From Clostridia bacterium (GTDB taxonomy: Bacteria > Bacillota > Dehalobacteriia > UBA7702): a DNA stretch of 53,510 nt. The translations under genes and the position numbers were made by a program. Every line of letters begins with the position of its first letter. Position 1 is the stretch's first letter. Location of the stretch: assembly GCA_051866595.1 (NCBI GenBank), contig JBJDXI010000069.1:1-53510 (forward strand), read 5' to 3'. The notes beneath the pieces are model-generated. The model saw only the letters and a program-made list of their open reading frames with translations. It was not told the DNA's origin and ran no database searches. Positions 11,128 through 30,648 of the stretch are shown piece after piece.

Positions 11128-12291
11128 TCAGGCTTTGCCGTCAAAATGAACGACCGTTTCATACTCCATACCCTTTTCTTTTAAACCGGCGTCGATTTGC
11201 TCTTTCAATTCCTTATAGGGCGTTTCCATGCTGTAAGGCACCGCCAGATCGAAAACGAGCTTGGTCTGATGAGCGCCGCGGACAAGGCGGAAATCGTGCA
11301 TGGAGAGGGCGGGATGAATCCCGGCAATGACGGTTTTCACCTGTTCCCGGGCGTCGTTCCATTCATCGTCGTTGAGAACGACGGGGTCGTAATGAATCAC
11401 CAGATTCACGTTGAGCTCCTCCATGGCCTCCCACTCGATTTCATCAATCATATCGTGGCAGTCCAGGGGATCTTCCTCGGCGCTGACTTCGGCGTGAACC
11501 GTGGCGTAGCATTGCCCCGGGCCATAATCGTGAACAAGGAGATCGTGGATGCCCAGCACCTTTTCGCGGGAAAGCACCATTTGGCTTAAATTTTCAATCA
11601 GCTCCTCATCGGCCTGTTTCCCCAGGAGGGGCGAAATCGTTTCCCTGGCGATATTCACACCGGAATAAAGAATGAACAACGCCACGGCCAGACCGACGAT
11701 GCCGTCGATATTCACATGGAAGAAATACTGCACCAGACAGCCCAGCAGAACCGCCGAGGACGTAATCACGTCGTTGCGGCTGTCCACGGAAGTGGCTTTC
11801 AGCGTAGTGGAGCGGATTTTCTTGCCCAGAGAACCGAAAAAGCCCATCATCCACAGCTTGACGCTGATGGAGGCAAGGAGCACGATAAAGGTAAACAGCG
11901 TAAATTCCACCGCCGCGGGATGAATGATTTTCATTACCGAGGTTTTGGCCAGCTCCGCGCCGATGATCAGAATCAGCGCCGCCACCACCAGACCGGAGAG
12001 GTATTCATAGCGGGCGTGGCCGTAGGGATGCTCGGCGTCGGCGGGTTGCTGAGCCATGCGGAACCCCAACAGCGTCACAACGGAAGAGGACGCGTCGGAA
12101 AGGTTGTTCACCGCGTCGGCAATGATGGAAACGGAACCTGCAATCCAGCCCACCACCAGTTTCCCCAGAAATAAAAGCGTGTTGCAGACAATGCCCGTCA
12201 ACCCGGCCAGCTTGCCGATGGCCGAACGCACCGAGGGATCTTCCACCCGGCTGTGGTCTTTGACAAAGAGCCGTAAAAGAAGATTCGTCAT
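11128..12291 (-). CDS. Cation diffusion facilitator transporter (probable Co/Ni efflux)
   Basis: ADAVNNLSD, HPYGHARYE, DSRND and HDLLVHDYGP motifs; lies downstream of a NiCo riboswitch. Confidence 0.92.
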   Translation of the reverse strand: MTNLLLRLFVKDHSRVEDPSVRSAIGKLAGLTGIVCNTLLFLGKLVVGWIAGSVSIIADAVNNLSDASSSVVTLLGFRMAQQPADAEHPYGHARYEYLSGLVVAALILIIGAELAKTSVMKIIHPAAVEFTLFTFIVLLASISVKLWMMGFFGSLGKKIRSTTLKATSVDSRNDVITSSAVLLGCLVQYFFHVNIDGIVGLAVALFILYSGVNIARETISPLLGKQADEELIENLSQMVLSREKVLGIHDLLVHDYGPGQCYATVHAEVSAEEDPLDCHDMIDEIEWEAMEELNVNLVIHYDPVVLNDDEWNDAREQVKTVIAGIHPALSMHDFRLVRGAHQTKLVFDLAVPYSMETPYKELKEQIDAGLKEKGMEYETVVHFDGKA

Positions 12292-12430: not shown

Positions 12431-12529
12431 TCGCTATTTCGTATTGCGTGAATCATATTTATTTATTATATCAGCCACAGCGTACAGCGTCAACAAAAAA
12501 ATACAGCGCCGGATTTCATCCCAAAATCA

Positions 12530-14008: not shown

Positions 14009-16642
14009 TCAGTTCAGGATATTTTCGTCAAAGCGCTGAAGCACCGCGGCGGCCTGGGCCCGGGTGGCGTTGCCCTGAGGTTCCAGAGTGCCGTTATCAT
14101 GGCCTTGGATCAGTTTAGAAGCCACGGCCCAGCCCATTTCTTCTTTCGCCCAGTCGCTGACGGAAGAACCGTCTTTGAAAGCGTCAAAAGAAGCGGTATT
14201 CGATACATCACAGCCGTTGAGTTTGGCGTAGCGGTACATCATCGCCGCCATCTGTTCACGGGTGATGGGATCCTGAGGCGCGAATTTGCCGGCGTAGCCT
14301 TCAACGATACCGTTTTCCGTACCCCAGGCCACGGCTTTGGAATACCATTCATCATCTTTCACATCATCATAAGAAGATGTGGCTTTGACTTCCGGTTCAC
14401 CGCCCAGGCGGTAAAGCATGGTGATATACATGGCGCGGGTCAGAGCGCTGTCTGGTTCAAAGGTCGTTGCCGTCATGCCGTTCATAATACCGTTGACATA
14501 GACATAACGGACATTTTCCATGTACCAGTCGCCGTCTTTCAGGTCGGTAAAGGGAAGCTCCGCGGTGAGATCAGCATAGGCTTTTTCCGCGGCGATAAGA
14601 GTATCGAGATTTTCCACAAAGCCTTTCTGTTCTTCGGTCAGAGCGTCATAGGCAGAGCGGGCCGCTTCGATGGCGCCTTTGCTTTCGAGGGTCACTTCGC
14701 CGATGGCCGCGATCTGTTTTTCCACGGCTTTTCCGGCAAGGTAATCATCACTGTACTGAGGATAGTTTTCCATGTAGGTTTCATGGGCCACACGGAAACA
14801 GGTTTTGCCGTTCAGAAGGTCGGCCAGCCCCTGCAGGACTTCGTAAGAAGCCATGCGGGTATCGTACTGCCCCATGCCGCCGCCGGCGTTCTGCTGGCAA
14901 AGGAGCGCAAAGAGGGCGCTTTGGCCGTTTTCGCCGATCCACGGATCATCGGTTCCGTATTCATCCAGTGTAACACCGGCGCCAACAGCGGTGGTGGTAG
15001 CTACCGCCACGGAAAATGTATTCATGTTACTGCCGTTGGCGATCACGGAAGTATAATTCTTCCGGAAAGCGTCGAGAAGCTTTTGGGCTTCTCCTTCCAT
15101 GCCTTCCACATCGTTCAGGAATTCACAGGCGAACAAGGTCATGGAATAAAAATCCGACATATTGGTGGACGCGCTGAGATCCACTTTTTCGCAGGCGTTC
15201 ACAAGGGTTTTGAGACCGGCGGCCCGGAGCTCTTCGGTATACCCTTCTTCCGGCGTGGCGTTCACCACTTCCAGGGCGAGCAGGAAATAGGATTCGGTGA
15301 TGGTATCGCTTTCGGCAAGGCGAACCCGAAGACTGCCGTCTTCATCGAGATTGAGTTCGCCGCCGGCGATATCGTGATCTTTATAGGCCAGAGAGATCAG
15401 GGCTTCCACAAGATTGGCGCCGCCGATGTTCCGGGGATCACCGCCGAGGCCGGCAATGCCGAGGATCTGACGGCCGAGGATTTTGGAAGCCGGTACCGAC
15501 CCCTGATTGGATGTTAGGCTTTCCAGTGTGGCATTTTTGAACTGAGAAGCTTTTGTATCGAGATAGGTTTTTCCCTCGGAGGAAGCCAGAAGTTCACTGT
15601 CGGCATCATAGCCCAGCGCGCCGAAAATATAAGCTTCCCAGTCGATGCCGGAGCCGTTGCCGGTATCCGCCGACAGGCCGAGATAATTTTCACCGTTGTA
15701 GAAACCTTTGGTCTGATACCATTTCACAAAAAGGTCCCGAGCGCCCTCGGCGTATTCTCTTGCCGTGGCGTACATGGTAAATTCCTGATACTGACGGCTG
15801 TCGCCGATTTCCGCAGCAACCCAGTATTTTCCGGCTTCAAGTCCTTCGGTGGGAATCGTTCCCGCGGTATCGGAATAGCAGTTCTGTACAATATCGCCGA
15901 CGGTGGTTTCCACCAGAGTACCTTCGATGGCGTCATCGGAAGTGCCGTTTTCCTTATCGGTCACATAAAGTTTAACGGCGGTATCATCATTGGCATCGGC
16001 AAAAGAAGCGCCGATACTGATTTTCATTGTATTTCCCTCATAATTAGAAACGGGAGAAATATCCAAACTTTTCACAACAGGTGAAGGTATTGTACAATAA
16101 AAAACGAAACTCGCGACTACTTGACCATCTGAATTCTGTTCAGATACGATATAACAATCTTCCAAACCAGTCCTTACATCAATAGGAGTATCTAATGAAG
16201 GAGTAAGGATACGAGCAGTACGTCCTCCTGAATTGATATACAACTGTTGATTATCTTTACCTAAATTCTTTACATTTACTAAATAAATATTTCTATCCGC
16301 GGGAACATCCAATTTAAACTGAGTGATATCTTCAGAAATATTTACGGTATAAATTTCCGCAGGGTTTTCTGCGACCCATTTTGAAAAAAAGGTATTAACA
16401 AACGCCTCACTTCTGTCAGCACCGGGATTTACCAGGGTAACCGTTTTCCCGGTATCAAAAAGCTCAAGAGCCGTAGATTCATCATCATTTGCATAGAACT
16501 GTAAAGAAGAAATAAGAGAATCAAGATTCGTTTCTTCCCCAGGTTCCTCTGCATAAACACCTAAGCTGAAACTCAACAGAACGATCAAGGCAAAAAAAGG
16601 AACAACGAGCAGATTTACTCTTCTTTTGATGATGTTTTCCAT
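14009..16642 (-). CDS. SLH surface protein with prenyltransferase/transcobalamin-alpha-like helical barrel
   Basis: Signal peptide; IDWEAYIFGALG, ILGIAGLGGDPRNIGGANLV and QQNAGGG motifs; one helical repeat; 3 SLH motifs. Confidence 0.75.
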   Translation of the reverse strand: MENIIKRRVNLLVVPFFALIVLLSFSLGVYAEEPGEETNLDSLISSLQFYANDDESTALELFDTGKTVTLVNPGADRSEAFVNTFFSKWVAENPAEIYTVNISEDITQFKLDVPADRNIYLVNVKNLGKDNQQLYINSGGRTARILTPSLDTPIDVRTGLEDCYIVSEQNSDGQVVASFVFYCTIPSPVVKSLDISPVSNYEGNTMKISIGASFADANDDTAVKLYVTDKENGTSDDAIEGTLVETTVGDIVQNCYSDTAGTIPTEGLEAGKYWVAAEIGDSRQYQEFTMYATAREYAEGARDLFVKWYQTKGFYNGENYLGLSADTGNGSGIDWEAYIFGALGYDADSELLASSEGKTYLDTKASQFKNATLESLTSNQGSVPASKILGRQILGIAGLGGDPRNIGGANLVEALISLAYKDHDIAGGELNLDEDGSLRVRLAESDTITESYFLLALEVVNATPEEGYTEELRAAGLKTLVNACEKVDLSASTNMSDFYSMTLFACEFLNDVEGMEGEAQKLLDAFRKNYTSVIANGSNMNTFSVAVATTTAVGAGVTLDEYGTDDPWIGENGQSALFALLCQQNAGGGMGQYDTRMASYEVLQGLADLLNGKTCFRVAHETYMENYPQYSDDYLAGKAVEKQIAAIGEVTLESKGAIEAARSAYDALTEEQKGFVENLDTLIAAEKAYADLTAELPFTDLKDGDWYMENVRYVYVNGIMNGMTATTFEPDSALTRAMYITMLYRLGGEPEVKATSSYDDVKDDEWYSKAVAWGTENGIVEGYAGKFAPQDPITREQMAAMMYRYAKLNGCDVSNTASFDAFKDGSSVSDWAKEEMGWAVASKLIQGHDNGTLEPQGNATRAQAAAVLQRFDENILN

Positions 16643-17301
16643 CTATTTTCTCCTTTCAATCATTTGATTTTTTAATTTTCATTCCCGCGCTGAAACGCGC
16701 GTTAAAATTCATTTCGATTCCGGATCAATGATACGTTTATCATCTCCCTTTTCCGGTCAGATCAACCTATGTTCCGACCTTATAAAATTCTGTGCGTGAA
16801 CCGCTTTCACGCAAACAATGAAGTTTTCAAAGACCGTGCTCCCCTTCCATATTTCAAAGCGCCGGAGTCCGTTGCGGAAAAGACCGGGTTTAGAACAACC
16901 AATTACTTTTTATTTTCTCCGTTTGGGCTTGGAATGGGAAGGTTTGGTATATTGCGGGGCTTGCGCCCGGACAATCAATAAGTATCTGCCCCAAAGGGGC
17001 CGCTCTCCTTTACAGGAGAGCTTTATATATTTTTTGGGAAGGAAATATTGAAAGGGGGGAAAACAAAACCCCCGACAACCGCGGAAACAAATCCCCTTGC
17101 GGGGCGGCTTCCGCGCAAACGGAAGCCGGGGAAGGTTTGTTTGGGTAAAAGAAACAATGTATTGCAAGGACGGAAAATCCGTCTCAAACAACCGGCATCG
17201 GAGCACCCCAAAAAAGAAAAAACGCCCATTCCCCTTTAAAAAAGGAAGGACGTTTTCATTTTCCGAGCACAAAACAAACGGAAGATCGACGGAAAACACC
17301 G

Positions 17302-17330
17302 TTGACACCGACAGAAAAGTACAGTAAAAT
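17302..17330 (+). promoter_or_regulatory. Near-consensus sigmaA promoter, antisense to the leader
   Basis: TTGACA-17 nt-TAAAAT. Confidence 0.65.
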
Positions 17331-17440
17331 AGAGATTGCCCTTCGGGGTACCGGCACGCTGTGCGAGAGAAAAGTGACCGCCAAGAAACTGACTCCGCAC
17401 AGCGTGTGCTTTATAGGATTTTGAATGTTAATATCAAATC

Positions 17441-17490
17441 AAAAAAACCGTATTTTCATTCTCTCGGAGAAGAAAATACGGTTTGCTTTT
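17441..17490. terminator. Riboswitch-1 terminator, possibly bidirectional
   Basis: AAACCGTATTTTC...GAAAATACGGTTT with U tracts on both strands. Confidence 0.75.
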
Positions 17491-17528
17491 TAGAAATCAA
17501 CCGGGATCATACACCAAGAGAAATACCT

Positions 17529-17664
17529 GCCGCATGACGTATTCTGACTCGGCTTCCATGTTTCCCTCGCCTTCCCGTTCTCAAAGGAACAGTGGCATCT
17601 GAGGTTCCCTCGGCCTCACAGCACCTTGGTAGTGTCCGGGATTTTCACCCGATTCCTATGCGGC
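17529..17664 (-). ncRNA. Cobalamin riboswitch 1
   Basis: AGGAATCGGGTGAAAATCCCG...CTGTGA...GCCACTG...CGGGAAGGC...AGTCAGAATAC. Loop TACCAAG is complementary to downstream CTTGGTG. Promoter TTGACT-17-TATATT at ~17720-17748. Confidence 0.9.
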
Positions 17665-17921
17665 GTTCCGATTCTGTTTATTTTTTCAGCGCACAAAATT
17701 AAATACTTATGTTATGTATAATATATCACGGAGTGCTCCGAAAGTCAATCAAAAAAGGCGAAAGGAACAAAAAAACCTTGGCGGAGCACACTAACAAACG
17801 ATACGATGCTCCGCAAGAAAATCAATTTTCGAGAACAAAATATTTGAAGTCAATTTCGCGAAAAAGCCTTGTTTTTCTCCGACAGCGTGGTATAATCATA
17901 TTGTAAATTGAATTGAACAGA

Positions 17922-18072
17922 GCAAAACGACGGAGAAACCGAGTTGGAATCTCGGACGGTCGCGCCACTGTGATGCGGAGCGTGCTTCGGATGAAAGTCA
18001 GCCACTGTAAAGTATGTTTATGGGAAGGCGAAGCAACGCGTTGATGCGAAGTCAGGATATTCCCCGTTTTGC
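17922..18072 (+). ncRNA. Cobalamin riboswitch 2, divergent, no downstream CDS
   Basis: CCGAGTTGGAATCTCGGACGGTCGCGCCACTGTGA...GCCACTG...TGGGAAGGC...AAGTCAGGATA. Kissing hairpin GCTTC-CGCGGAA-GAAGC at 18085-18101. Promoter TGnTATAAT at 17888-17896. Confidence 0.9.
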
Positions 18073-18119
18073 GTTTGAGTCTCAGCTTCCGCGGAAGAAG
18101 CGACGGTCTTTTTTATTGG

Positions 18120-18322
18120 AGAAAAGCCCCGTTTCTTTTTAGAAGCGGGGTCGATTTTATTTACATGTTGCCAAACTCAGTTCGTGTTCCGCATCTTTCC
18201 GTGTCTCTAAGGCATGAGGAACACACTCACCTCTTCTATTAAGGATAACTCCTTAACTACAAATCTCCTTTCCTTTTCTCTTTCTTTTCTCTCCGGCGGC
18301 CTTCAGCGGCCGCTCTTTTTTT
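18120..18322 (+). ncRNA. Candidate riboswitch-controlled sRNA (CU-rich)
   Basis: Hairpins, then CACCTC, CTCCTT and CTCCTTTCC motifs, ending in GCGGCC/GGCCGC plus a T run; no credible ORF. Confidence 0.45.
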
Positions 18323-18394
18323 GTATGAATCTACGCCAATCCCTCTTCTTCCCCCCCCCGGTTTAGGGAAAATCTTTTCCGTTTCCAAACAGCC

Positions 18395-18433
18395 GAAGGC
18401 CGATGCTGGTTTCAGCATCGGCCTTCTTTTTTT
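18395..18433. terminator. Strong terminator hairpin between convergent units
   Basis: GAAGGCCGATGCTG/CAGCATCGGCCTTC followed by T7. Confidence 0.8.
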
Positions 18434-18473
18434 CATTTCATCACAAGGAGGAAAAATACAGGAGGGATTCCTG

Positions 18474-21401
18474 TTATTTTGTCGTCATTTCCGCGAAACG
18501 CTGGATCACCGCGGCGGCCTGGGCCCGGGTGGCGCTGCCTTTCGGTTCCAGGGTGCCGTTATCATGACCCTGCATCAGCTTGGAGGCCACGGCCCAGCCC
18601 ATTTCTTCTTTCGCCCAGTCGCTGACGGTATTTCCGTCTTTGAAAGCGTCAAAGGAAGCGGTATTCGATACATCACAGCCGTTGAGTTTGGCGTAGCGGT
18701 ACATCATCGCCGCCATCTGTTCCCTGGTGATGCTGTCCATCGGACTGAATTTGCCGTTATAACCTTCCACGATGCCTTTTTCCGTGCCCCATGCCACGGC
18801 TTTGGAATACCATTCATCGTCTTTCACATCATCATAAGAAGATGTGGCTTTGACTTCCGGTTTACCGCCCAGGCGGTAAAGCATGGTGATATACATGGCC
18901 CGGGTCAATTCACTGTCCGGTTCAAAGGTCGTTCCCGTCATGCCGTTCATAATGCCGTTGACATAGACATAGCGGACAGAATCCTGATACCAGCCGTCCT
19001 TTGCCAGATCGGTAAAGGGAATTTCCGCGGTGATATAGGCGTAGGCTTCTTCGGCGGCAACAAGGTCATCGGCCTTTGAGACCAGAGCTTTCTGGTCGGC
19101 GGTCAAAGCGTTATAGGCGGCACGGGCCGCATCGATGGCGTCTTTGCTGTCAAGGGTCACTTCGCCGATGGCGGCGATTTTTTCATCCACCGCTTTGGCG
19201 GCGGCTTTGTCCGCGGCTTCTTTTTCCAGCTGAGCCAGTTTCGCTTCGGCGGCGGTGAGTGTATCGGCCTTGGTCACAAGGGCTTTTGCTTCATCGGAGA
19301 GAGCGTCATAGGCGGCACGAGCCCCTTCGATGGTGTCTTTGCTGTCGAGAGTCACTTCACCGATGGCGGCGATTTTCTTATCCACAGCGTCGGCGGCCAG
19401 CTGCTGTTTGACTTCGTCTTTCATGGCAATGGCAAAAATAGCGCCGCTGTCGTTTTTATGATAGATGGTGCCGTCTTCGTCGCAGATCACACTGGCGGTG
19501 CACCACTGTTCAAATCTTGCGGCATCGTAAAGGGTGGTCTGAACGGCTTCGGAACCGTCGGCTTTGGCCTTGATCACTTCCACGCCGCCGGGATTGTTGT
19601 TATAGGCAACATAAAGATACAGGTAACCGTCTTCTTCATAAGCGGTGGAGAGCAAAGGCGAAGTCTGAGCGTGGCCGCTTCCATTCACCGACCATTTGAT
19701 TTCTTTGGTGCTGAGGTCAATGCCGATGTAATGACCGTCTCCCCCTTTGCCCACGCCCATATAGGCCATGCCTTTATAGATCACCGGGGTGCTGGTGGCA
19801 CCGGTGCCGTAGGCGGAGCAGTCGATGATCTCAAGATCCGAAAGTTCGCCGGTTTCGCCGTTGATGGCCGCCATGCCCAGCTTACCGTTGTTGATGGCGA
19901 AGTATACTTTGCCGTTGTCATAGCAGACCGAGGAACGGATCGTGGTAGCTTCGCCCACCTCCAGATCGGTGACCAGCTTGCCGGTTTCTTTATCGCGGCT
20001 GTAAAGGTGGCCGCTGTCGCTGCCGTAGACTACATAATCGCCGACGATGGCGGCGCCGGCCCAATAGAAGCCTCTGGCATCGGTGGCACGCCAGATCAGT
20101 TTACCGGTTTCCGCGTCGAGACAGACAAAGGCATCTTCCTTGTTATACCCCCCAAATCCGGTGTAGATTTTGCCGTCGTCATAAGTGACGGGGCTGTAGG
20201 CGCCGCCGCCGTTTTCATCTTTATAAATCCATACGGAGTTCAGTGTTTTGGCGCTGAGAGCTTCCACAGTGCCGCCACCCAGAGGGCAGAAGATCAGACC
20301 GTCGCTGTAAGTAGCCGGAACCGTACCCCAGCTGTAGGAAGCGGATAATGCGCCGACGGCGGTGACTTCGCCGGTAACTTTATTGATTTTCTTTACGCTG
20401 TTTCCGCAGATGGAAACGACGGAATCATCCACAAGGATCAGGGGAGAAGGCGTATCGGACCAGTCGGTGCTGAAGGTCTTCTCCCAGAGCACTTCGGTTT
20501 CTTCGACGGTGCGGGGGGTCTGAGCCGCAGTGATACCGTTATTGATGCTGTTATTGCGGAACGAGGACCAGTCGGAATCATAAACCACACGGTCCATTTC
20601 CACTTCAATGGTGTATTCCGTGGCGCCGGAAGAGGTGTTCATCGAGGGCCAGGAGGTATCGCCGCATTTCACGGTGATGACAAGACCTTTGTCCACCGGA
20701 ATTTCCTCAGTGCGCTTGTATTCTTTGTCCCCCACATAAATGCGAACCTGGAAGTTTTTGTTTTCCGCGGTGGGCGTGATTTTTACCGAATCGGTGCCTT
20801 CGGGAAGTTTCAGGGAATATTCGTTGACATCCCCGTCAAATTCCGGCGATAAGGTGCCTTCGCTGGATTCCAGCGCTTTCAGCGCTGTGCTGTTGTTGTT
20901 CCAGGAGCCGCCGAGGTCTTCACCCATGGTAATGCTGTAACAGACACAAATCTCATCTCCGTCAGCCAAAGTTCCATCCGCAACAGTATAAGCAGAGAAG
21001 CCCTCATTGGTAAACCAATCATTCAGTGTACCCATCCAACCGGAATAACCACCGCCATCAAATGCACTGAGACCGTTAATCGAAGAAATATAACCGGAAT
21101 CCAGGCCTTCCGCCGTGAGGCCTTCACTTTCAAGGGCGGCCTTTACACAGCTCATCATCGTGGAGTCGTCATTCAGTTCCACCCAGGTATCCACCAGGGT
21201 ACCGGTCCAGAAGGAGTCTTCCCAGGTCAGATCGTTTTCTTCCGCAAATTCTTCATCAAAAGTGGTGTTTTCAATAATGACATGAACTTTATCCGTATCA
21301 CCGGAAAGACCGGTATCCAGCAGCGTCGCGGCGGAAAGGCCGGAGCTGAACGCGAAGATACAGAGAATCATGCAAAGTAAGCTAAGCCATTGTTTTTTCA
21401 T
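18474..21401 (-). CDS. SLH protein: DUF4430-like, cadherin-like beta-sandwich, PQQ-like beta-propeller, 2 helical repeats, 3 SLH
   Basis: YISSINGLSAFDGGGYSGWMGTLNDWF; LSPEFDGDVNEY; WSSFRNN and CLDAETGKLIW blades; start MKKQWL after an RBS. Confidence 0.8.
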   Translation of the reverse strand: MKKQWLSLLCMILCIFAFSSGLSAATLLDTGLSGDTDKVHVIIENTTFDEEFAEENDLTWEDSFWTGTLVDTWVELNDDSTMMSCVKAALESEGLTAEGLDSGYISSINGLSAFDGGGYSGWMGTLNDWFTNEGFSAYTVADGTLADGDEICVCYSITMGEDLGGSWNNNSTALKALESSEGTLSPEFDGDVNEYSLKLPEGTDSVKITPTAENKNFQVRIYVGDKEYKRTEEIPVDKGLVITVKCGDTSWPSMNTSSGATEYTIEVEMDRVVYDSDWSSFRNNSINNGITAAQTPRTVEETEVLWEKTFSTDWSDTPSPLILVDDSVVSICGNSVKKINKVTGEVTAVGALSASYSWGTVPATYSDGLIFCPLGGGTVEALSAKTLNSVWIYKDENGGGAYSPVTYDDGKIYTGFGGYNKEDAFVCLDAETGKLIWRATDARGFYWAGAAIVGDYVVYGSDSGHLYSRDKETGKLVTDLEVGEATTIRSSVCYDNGKVYFAINNGKLGMAAINGETGELSDLEIIDCSAYGTGATSTPVIYKGMAYMGVGKGGDGHYIGIDLSTKEIKWSVNGSGHAQTSPLLSTAYEEDGYLYLYVAYNNNPGGVEVIKAKADGSEAVQTTLYDAARFEQWCTASVICDEDGTIYHKNDSGAIFAIAMKDEVKQQLAADAVDKKIAAIGEVTLDSKDTIEGARAAYDALSDEAKALVTKADTLTAAEAKLAQLEKEAADKAAAKAVDEKIAAIGEVTLDSKDAIDAARAAYNALTADQKALVSKADDLVAAEEAYAYITAEIPFTDLAKDGWYQDSVRYVYVNGIMNGMTGTTFEPDSELTRAMYITMLYRLGGKPEVKATSSYDDVKDDEWYSKAVAWGTEKGIVEGYNGKFSPMDSITREQMAAMMYRYAKLNGCDVSNTASFDAFKDGNTVSDWAKEEMGWAVASKLMQGHDNGTLEPKGSATRAQAAAVIQRFAEMTTK

Positions 21402-21562
21402 TTTATGATTCCTTTCCATAGGTAGATTTTTTCGGCCGTATGCTTTGTTTTGCTCCTTTCTTCTTCCCAATCGGCCGTATGCGGGAAAATATTCTATTCA
21501 AGCTGCGCCCTCCGGAAACGGAGGAGCCGCAAACCTTGTCAGATCCACAGGGAACACTCCCT

Positions 21563-30356: not shown

Positions 30357-30389
30357 AAAAAAAACCGCAAAAGCATTGAGCCTTTGCGG
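30357..30389 (-). terminator. Riboswitch-3 terminator
   Basis: CCGCAAAGGC...GCTTTTGCGG followed by T8. Confidence 0.75.
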
Positions 30390-30570: not shown

Positions 30571-30648
30571 AATCGTTTTTTTCGATTGTAGATATATCAT
30601 ACCATCGTTCTTTTGAAAATGCAAGAAGAATTTTTCAAAAAGCAAAAG

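Follow-up and report, generated by a model that had tools for sequence, protein, structure and literature searches.

What does a complete cobalamin riboswitch regulate when no gene follows it? The question is raised by an element on the plus strand of contig JBJDXI010000069.1 of an uncultured gut Clostridia bacterium (assembly GCA_051866595.1), of which a stretch of 53,510 nucleotides (nt), here called the window, was analyzed. At positions 17869 to 18322, a first-pass annotation made from the letters of the sequence had proposed an orphan B12 riboswitch heading a noncoding RNA, which would be made when B12 is low and would repress the mRNAs of B12-dependent enzymes in trans. The first part of that proposal held up: the riboswitch lacks a downstream gene and belongs to a conserved unit with a predicted promoter and terminator of its own, of which 14 copies were compared. 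We give a probability of about 0.6 to the reading that this unit is an autonomous gene for a noncoding RNA whose length is set by B12, with action in trans through motifs resembling the anti-Shine-Dalgarno (anti-SD) sequence as the favored mode.

Promoter, aptamer, and kissing-loop platform

The unit opens with a putative promoter at 17869 to 17896 (plus strand), read from the sequence as a -35 box TTGTTT (17869 to 17874), a 16-nt spacer, and an extended -10 element TGgTATAAT (17888 to 17896), from which the RNA is predicted to start near 17903. The TTG of the -35 box and the -10 element are retained across the seven same-genus homologues; the promoter was not among the calls of a simple consensus scan. 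The cobalamin aptamer, at 17892 to 18082 on the same strand, is full length, matching Rfam RF00174 over model positions 1 to 189 of 189 with 60.5 bits (E = 1.4e-12; gathering score, 31.5 bits), and it was recovered again in the whole-genome search.

Directly behind the aptamer, at 18085 to 18114 (plus strand), stands a P13-type hairpin with a U-run. Its stem pairs GCTTC at 18085 to 18089 with GAAGC at 18097 to 18101 around the loop CGCGGAA (18090 to 18096), and it is followed by GACGGTC and by the U-run at 18109 to 18114. The CGCG of the P13 loop is complementary to the invariant UCGCG of aptamer loop L5, an assignment based on the Rfam consensus line of the RF00174 match together with known structures. 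This L5 UCGCG and L13 CGCG combination is found in 13 of the 14 copies, and the remaining copy, L041, has UUGCG and CGCA, one compensatory change. Judged by this complementarity, the predicted L5-L13 kissing loop is real, and P13 is probably both the B12-dependent kissing-loop partner and a first, weak terminator.

Conservation and covariation across two genera

The unit reaches well beyond this genome. A DNA search recovered it in all six of the other genomes of the genus, at 73 to 76% identity and extending well past the aptamer, and R1, a covariance model built from just the tail, matched all seven genus genomes. R1 also gave weak matches in three sister-genus genomes. In two of them (L041 and L042), the match lies directly behind a cobalamin aptamer; in the third (L040), and also in L044 and L045, it does not, and these were taken as terminator look-alikes. 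A pattern scan over the genomes of 185,579 species returned 20 matches, and 11 of them carried both the aptamer and an R1 match. Five of the 11 score the same as known places and were not recounted, while L087, L089, L100, and L105 are new; the other nine matches came without a riboswitch and were set aside as chance. Among metagenome contigs, one of five pattern matches had the aptamer and the tail model. The comparison thus covers 14 copies from two genera, eight from the same genus and six from the sister genus (L041, L042, L087, L089, L100, and L105), and all six sister-genus copies follow a cobalamin aptamer. Two genomes hold the unit twice, in different places: G011 (L042 and L100) and G001 (L015 and L029). 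In the second G001 copy, the motifs have diverged (TTATCTC for TCACCTC) and the first U-run is missing.

The first-pass annotation had suggested an alignment of homologues as a check, and the alignment bears out the structure at the front of the tail. Across P13 and the following hairpin (hairpin 2) in the 14-sequence alignment A2, 98.5% of cells are paired and 9 of 15 pairs have changed on both sides. None of 500 shuffles attained the observed score, and slid controls paired at 44 to 56%. Taken separately, P13 has five pairs, three of them changed on both sides, with 100% of cells paired, and hairpin 2 has 10 pairs, six of them changed on both sides, with 97.7% paired.

The copies sit in at least five different gene neighborhoods. 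Six genus copies come after genes of the SpoVAD and SpoVAC/SpoVAEB families and face a gene for a 68-amino-acid (aa) protein without a Pfam family, plus a nitroreductase gene. In the sister genus, the unit is found downstream of an M20 peptidase gene, before UPF0182 (by Pfam in L087 and by a near-identical N terminus in L105), and before CobO in L041; other copies face a hexapeptide transferase gene or an SLH-type gene. The spoVAE locus of the window's own genome, on contig C66, has about 100 nt with one hairpin between its genes and no riboswitch, and the unit is therefore located elsewhere in this genome.

Whether relatives carry a gene at the same place, which would make the element the remnant of a deletion, was approached from the facing gene, which encodes a 998-aa protein. 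When the seven genus genomes were searched with this protein, SLH paralogues turned up by the hundreds and a clear orthologue did not, the best match having 49% identity over the C terminus, and the question was therefore answered through the homologous units instead. These are conserved as a gene-less RNA in all seven genus genomes. By its conservation across the genus and its sister genus, the unit is not a deletion remnant, and with a predicted promoter and terminator of its own at either end, it has the makeup of an independent gene.

A pyrimidine-rich tail with anti-SD-like motifs

Behind P13, the tail begins with hairpin 2 at 18126 to 18162 (plus strand), a GC-rich stem GCCCCGTTTCT...AGAAGCGGGGT at 18126 to 18151 that the terminator scan reads with 11 pairs, followed by a U-rich stretch. 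By sequence, this hairpin, and not P13, is the stronger terminator; it may serve as a second, strong terminator or else as a 5' stem that protects the tail. A pyrimidine-rich stretch of about 170 nt then separates it from the closing intrinsic terminator at 18295 to 18322 (stem 18295 to 18314, T7 at 18316 to 18322; six pairs, two of them changed on both sides), and it is at this terminator that similarity to the relatives stops. In all, the terminator scan called six sites against 1.7 expected, with plus-strand calls at 18126 to 18151, 18295 to 18314, and 18395 to 18426. From a start near 17903, the predicted RNAs are about 212 nt (stop at 18114), about 260 nt (18162), and about 420 nt (18322). 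The first-pass annotation had expected forms of about 210 and about 420 nt. Both sizes emerge from the sequence, and the shorter one is consistent with P13, but the second hairpin at 18126 to 18151, which could give a form of about 260 nt, had been overlooked. The other parts it had named, namely, the promoter, intact aptamer, kissing hairpin, U tract, pyrimidine tract, and terminator, lie at or near the places it gave.

The first element after hairpin 2 is a conserved block, CATGTTGCCAAAC, at 18164 to 18176 (plus strand). It often supplies the 5' side of a stem on which the first pyrimidine motif is displayed. All 14 copies carry its GCCAA unchanged, as the eight same-genus copies do GCCAAA. 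TTGCCA was also considered as a -35 box and ruled out by eye, with 12 to 22 nt to any -10-like hexamer among the copies. The first anti-SD-like motif and candidate seed, TCACCTCTTC, is located at 18227 to 18236 (plus strand), and the TCACCTC within it is kept in seven of the eight same-genus copies. The second, CTCCTTTCC at 18265 to 18273, lies in a pyrimidine tract that we read at 18260 to 18294 (plus strand), where same-genus copies retain ATCTCCTTT or ATCTCTTTT. Between the two, the minimum free energy fold of the window copy forms a small hairpin at 18239 to 18256 (plus strand), TTAAGGA-TAAC-TCCTTAA, which contains a CTCCTT at 18249 to 18254 and is specific to this copy. All three of the motifs listed by the first-pass annotation are thus present, CACCTC being at 18228 to 18233.

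The GC skew is -0.36 across 18200 to 18399, and the pyrimidine content is 60 to 66% in all 14 tails. Anti-SD-type hexamers number seven in the window tail against 1.6 in dinucleotide shuffles (P = 0.006), and in every one of the 14 tails their number is higher than the shuffle mean; the six sister-genus tails have one or two CUCCUU-type motifs each, with two in all except L041. In partition-function folds, the seven TCACCTC sites have unpaired probabilities of 0.78 to 0.94, with 0.93 for TCACCTCTTC of the window and likewise 0.93 for CTCCTTTCC. Of the CTCCTT-type sites, 14 of 18 are unpaired at 0.85 or above, compared with tail means of 0.46 to 0.60; the exceptions have 0.20 (the middle motif of the window), 0.55, 0.69, and 0.72. 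The tail is thus predicted to hold a conserved, accessible seed complementary to ribosome-binding sites.

A longer-range structure is seen in five or six genus copies (the L014 to L019 tails), where UUCCGUAU and AUACGGAA form a helix that surrounds an inner hairpin and leaves TCACCTCTTC in a loop. The window copy is without this helix, and GTGTTCC at 18184 to 18190 pairs instead with GGAACAC at 18218 to 18224. Beyond the conserved part lie a run of nine Cs (within 18349 to 18359) and, just after it, a further strong terminator at 18395 to 18433 (plus strand; 14 pairs and then T7 in the terminator scan). No separate transcript for this terminator to stop is evident, and both features fall outside what the relatives share.

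Coding potential offers little to set against a noncoding RNA. Plus-strand open reading frames (ORFs) in 18014 to 18366 reach at most 57 aa and run through the hairpins, and the 14 tails have no ORF, start codon, or Shine-Dalgarno (SD) sequence in common. A recurrent "MPRF..." frame begins inside hairpin 2 and is missing from the window. A three-codon minus-strand ORF, ATGAAGAGGTGA, is found in six of the eight genus copies and absent from the window, and it was dismissed. Judged from these frames, the tail is protein-free, and the earlier statement that no credible ORF precedes the convergent gene end at 18474 stands.

How the RNA would work and what weighs against it

The features above suggest the following course of events. 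A sigma-A-type promoter would begin an RNA headed by the complete cobalamin aptamer. With B12 bound, the kissing loop would steady P13, and transcription would end at the first or second hairpin, leaving a short RNA of about 212 or about 260 nt. When there is no B12, the polymerase would continue to 18322 and make the form of about 420 nt, and only this long form would carry the conserved single-stranded TCACCTCTTC and CTCCTTTCC. Because the accessible motifs are in the long form only, that form is likely to be the active one. It would act in trans, the likeliest mode being that the motifs pair with certain mRNAs at their purine-rich ribosome-binding regions. Base pairing in trans is favored because the sequence around the motifs drifts, whereas the motifs themselves, short and repeated, are conserved and unpaired. 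Such pairing would resemble that of CU-rich small RNAs of Firmicutes, possibly with Hfq, which is encoded in the genome, and the RNA would serve as a low-B12 signal.

Public sequencing data bear on the read-through form. Logan contigs from four RNA-library runs in three studies were aligned to the window. One run (X15) has a 364-nt contig wholly inside 17922 to 18287 that bridges P13, the U-run, and hairpin 2. Another (X17) has a 264-nt contig at 17923 to 18188, and a third (X18) has a contig at 18122 to 18260. The fourth (X19) has contigs at 17731 to 18023, 17963 to 18195, 18037 to 18195, and 18166 to 18322, the last with 45 further letters unlike the window. The stretches 18337 to 18640 and 17422 to 17600 are without contig cover from RNA libraries, which is uninformative. 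About half of the sampled words, or more, also occur in each of 14 runs tagged as DNA or of unknown kind, which come from nine studies and, for the most part, from pig gut. The RNA-library contigs are a hint that the read-through form exists.

Several results, which concern the libraries, the switch, the tail, and the targets, speak against this reading or against parts of it. Neither the strand nor the ends nor the level of a transcript can be read from the contigs, and RNA libraries may also contain DNA. P13 is a weak terminator in the genus, with a 5-bp stem and a U-run that starts 7 nt later, and the terminator scan made no call at P13 and its U-run; given this weakness, B12 may act on P13 or on hairpin 2. 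The middle of the tail is without a conserved fold, RNAalifold finding the two outer hairpins only, and one of the window's three motifs, the CTCCTT, is predicted to be paired. The excess of anti-SD hexamers is at P < 0.05 in only 5 of the 14 tails, and in the tails of G002, G003, and G006, P is 0.27 to 0.39. Finally, the likeness to an anti-SD sequence is a likeness to the general consensus, and this metagenome-assembled genome is without a 16S gene.

Targets were sought among 1,807 start regions taken from our own rough gene models of the genome (1.87 Mb in 196 contigs, 92% complete). Duplex prediction with the whole tail gave unrealistically long duplexes and was dropped. With the seeds, the best duplexes with translation initiation regions (TIRs) reached -21.6 kcal/mol, close to shuffled seeds (about -15 to -18, for a quarter of the TIRs), and the top hits, IspD-like and HypE-like genes named by eye from their N termini, did not outdo shuffled seeds. 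Where the genome holds exact complements of the motifs, they fall inside coding regions. Across the genus, seed complements (14-mer, two mismatches, 60 places) are no more frequent than a control pattern, and the counts per genome resemble a backwards control; a 14-mer variant that recurs in four genomes lies inside a coding region. UGGCAAC near starts turned out to be six genes that simply begin Met-Ala-Thr. Enrichment for the tail seeds was also absent among the genes that come first in the 11 other riboswitch units (Kolmogorov-Smirnov P = 0.10 to 0.72, with P = 0.05 for a 16S-type control seed).

The first-pass annotation had pointed to B12 enzymes as targets and proposed their enrichment as a check, and here its expectation gained no support. 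Nothing rose above shuffled seeds, and the genes with a B12-binding domain gave a weak trend. The genome encodes several corrinoid proteins, and the domain has eight matches, six of them over the cutoff. The best TIR ranks among these genes are 21, 44, and 69 of 1,807, and our own Fisher combination gave P of about 0.07, with the C157 gene excluded because its model is wrong and C61:60-425 having no model. One gene for a B12-binding protein, the C27 corrinoid gene, has a matching SD sequence, but its orthologues in five of the seven genomes have differing ones, which again counts against the proposed pairing. No methylmalonyl-CoA mutase was found in the genome at its 92% completeness. No target stood above chance, and we treat the B12-sparing logic as a hypothesis.

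That hypothesis can be put in a stronger form, which we offer tentatively and think doubtful. The unit would represent a new family of B12-gated small RNAs in an uncultured gut Clostridia lineage, whose tail, with two unpaired anti-SD-like copies, would cover ribosome-binding sites at low B12, for example, those of the corrinoid proteins of methyltransferase systems, and so ration the cofactor as a B12 counterpart of iron sparing by RyhB. Were this so, it would be the first riboswitch-gated small RNA that base pairs in trans, rather than sequestering a protein or overlapping a gene as an antisense RNA.

Relation to known riboswitch-gated RNAs

The closest parallels are Rli55 of Listeria monocytogenes and EutX of Enterococcus faecalis. 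According to two reports, the 5' part of each contains an adenosylcobalamin (AdoCbl) riboswitch and EutV is bound by a dual hairpin on the 3' side (PMC8237595), and Rli55 is 200 or about 450 nt long (PMC8079631). The likeness extends to a promoter of their own, a 5' AdoCbl-type riboswitch, a B12-dependent short form, and a long noncoding form without B12, the forms of our unit being predicted ones; the sizes are also close, with about 212 to 260 and about 420 nt predicted against 200 and about 450 nt for Rli55. In contrast, the 3' part of our unit has no ANTAR dual hexaloop in P13, hairpin 2, or any of the folds, and the tail carries single-stranded CU-rich anti-SD-like motifs instead. Nor is the unit linked to a eut locus or EutVW, its neighbors being SLH/DUF4430, SpoVA, M20 peptidase, UPF0182, and CobO genes, and no similarity is detectable through Rfam. 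On this sequence evidence, the unit would work like Rli55 and EutX yet lacks two of their defining features and is not a member of that group.

AspocR of L. monocytogenes, which is antisense to pocR, is similar in that a B12 riboswitch heads a noncoding transcript that is short or long depending on B12 (230 or 1,400 nt; PMC8079631), and most copies of our unit likewise run toward the end of an opposite-strand gene. AspocR, however, with its 1,400 nt, overlaps its target, whereas in our unit a terminator ends the RNA short of the facing gene, a second terminator follows, and the facing genes vary; by sequence, an AspocR-type overlap with the opposite gene is not seen. SreA and SreB, the Listeria S-adenosylmethionine (SAM) riboswitches, and a SAM-I riboswitch/small RNA of Desulfovibrio vulgaris also give a riboswitch transcript a role in trans (PMC13501541; bioRxiv 10.1101/803072). 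They pair through the terminated riboswitch and control a downstream gene, whereas our unit has no downstream gene and its seeds lie past the terminator. The cyclic di-GMP riboswitch Bc1 of Bacillus thuringiensis has two terminators 28 bp apart, the downstream one being stronger (PMC11218506), which is the likeness to our unit; the ligand differs, and Bc1 precedes genes, whereas our unit precedes a noncoding tail.

In the literature examined, EutX, Rli55, and AspocR are the only B12-gated noncoding RNAs described, and the table of signal-responsive small RNAs in a 2026 review places only Rli55/EutX under B12 riboswitches (PMC13501541). No B12-gated base-pairing small RNA was found among the titles and abstracts searched.

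The design of the tail itself recalls another group of regulators. The unit shares unpaired pyrimidine motifs and a terminal intrinsic terminator with C/U-rich small RNAs of Firmicutes. RNAs of the RsaE/RoxS and RsaI/RsaOG type use such pyrimidine motifs to pair with SD regions, and to our knowledge, none of them is headed by a riboswitch. Membership in RsaOG is not indicated by Rfam, where the match scores 17.4 bits (E = 3.2), below the gathering score of 50, and a comparison of 18060 to 18480 with all of Rfam (E up to 10) gave 15 weak matches, all under the gathering score, and no family. The unit would then combine the design of Rli55 and EutX, in a different and uncultured gut lineage, with a different output module that has accessible pyrimidine motifs and no ANTAR structure. 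If the tail does pair with ribosome-binding sites, unlinked genes would come under posttranscriptional control that depends on vitamin status, and many "orphan" riboswitches overlooked in annotation would be regulator genes.

Alternative explanations

The long form might sequester an RNA-binding protein, as EutX and Rli55 do EutV, with the pyrimidine motifs and GUUGCCAA as protein sites. Such a decoy would account for an architecture and sizes like those of Rli55 and EutX (PMC8237595 and PMC8079631), for the two repeated motifs per RNA in most copies, for the lack of an mRNA target in the scans, and perhaps for the invariant GCCAA. We nevertheless hold it to be unlikely: no partner-protein candidate travels with the unit, whose neighbors vary, and the loops, of 7 nt in P13 and 4 to 5 nt in hairpin 2, are not the dual hexaloops of ANTAR-type hairpins. 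A specific ANTAR/EutX model was dismissed on the latter ground and because the sole ANTAR protein of the genome is encoded beside a glutamine-synthetase-like gene, not beside the unit or eut genes. A role in cis, as an antisense RNA or by transcriptional interference with the DUF4430/SLH gene that ends at 18474, would follow the precedent of AspocR (PMC8079631). The unit does face the end of an opposite-strand gene in the window, in the six copies at spoVAE loci, in L100, and in L101, and two of these facing genes are SLH-type, that of the window and that of L100 (for L100, an SLH-like reading of a partial ORF by eye, with no Pfam scan). Moreover, the terminator of the minus-strand gene itself, at 18474 to 18458, is weak, and its 3' untranslated region could overlap the tail. 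Yet two plus-strand terminators, at 18295 to 18322 and 18395 to 18433, stand between the tail and the gene, three copies have same-strand genes after them, and the facing genes range from the 68-aa protein without a Pfam family and its nitroreductase neighbor through a hexapeptide transferase to SLH proteins. The conserved sequence also ends with the unit's terminator, and taken together, these findings make an antisense role very unlikely.

There are two further explanations, and to each we assign only a slim chance. The short, terminated riboswitch RNA could be the active species, as in SreA, or the unit might just titrate or report B12, with the tail as a spacer that holds terminators. The aptamer and its platform are indeed the best-conserved parts, and there is precedent for trans-acting SAM riboswitch RNAs (PMC13501541), but the tail retains specific motifs, a covarying hairpin, and a terminator of its own over two genera, which is not what one expects of a spacer. 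Alternatively, the element could be a relic or the long leader of a downstream B12 gene or, in a variant of that view, could encode a small protein in the tail. In L041, a gene for a CobO/BtuR adenosyltransferase does follow on the same strand, 563 nt past the aptamer, and two other riboswitches in the window are separated from the next credible gene by 625 and 897 nt. The other 13 of the 14 copies have no B12 gene behind them, and even in L041, a long terminator hairpin precedes the gene, with a promoter-like TTTACT-TATAAT seen by eye. The retained promoter and terminator and the covarying stems tell against a relic, and the small-protein variant meets tails with no ORF, start, or SD sequence in common and candidate ORFs that start within hairpin 2. 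A leader role may survive for L041 only.

Genomic setting

Cobalamin riboswitches are frequent in this genome (G000), with 12 in 1.87 Mb. Gene functions after them, read by eye from the N termini, include cobalt/ECF transport, CbiM, CobT, CobQ, ThiC-like (Bza-type), and large surface proteins. The distance from aptamer to gene is 77 to 217 nt everywhere but for the three riboswitches in the window.

One of these three is the unit described here. A second is divergent to it, at 17656 to 17539 on the minus strand (60.9 bits, model positions 47 to 167 only), with a promoter at 17748 to 17720, and lies 897 nt from the gene for an 877-aa SLH protein that starts at 16642. The 132-aa ORF in between, at 16910 to 17308, has no Pfam family and looks noncoding, and the stretch may be a long structured leader or a riboswitch RNA.

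The third, at 30582 to 30424, is followed by a terminator at 30389 to 30365 and is separated by 625 nt from seven consecutive genes on the minus strand. These encode a Cadherin-like protein of 684 aa, a MoxR AAA ATPase, and DUF58, transglutaminase-like, prenyltransferase-toroid-like, and DUF4430 proteins, and finally the 998-aa DUF4430/SLH surface protein. The last gene, at 18474 to 21470 (minus strand), is the one that converges on our unit, and its product has DUF4430, Cadherin-like, PQQ_2, and three SLH domains. With DUF4430 presumably having a role in B12 binding, the riboswitch-headed run looks like a B12-controlled locus for B12 capture at the surface.

Other elements outside the unit also relate to cobalt or B12. 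A NiCo riboswitch at 12437 to 12360 (minus strand, 47 bits) is directly upstream of a cation-efflux (CDF) gene at 12291 to 11128. On another contig of the genome, at C96:81-1916 (minus strand), a 611-aa protein combines an N-terminal B12-binding domain (PF02310, 87.9 bits) with what reads by eye as a LytS/YehU-type histidine kinase, a possible B12 protein sensor.

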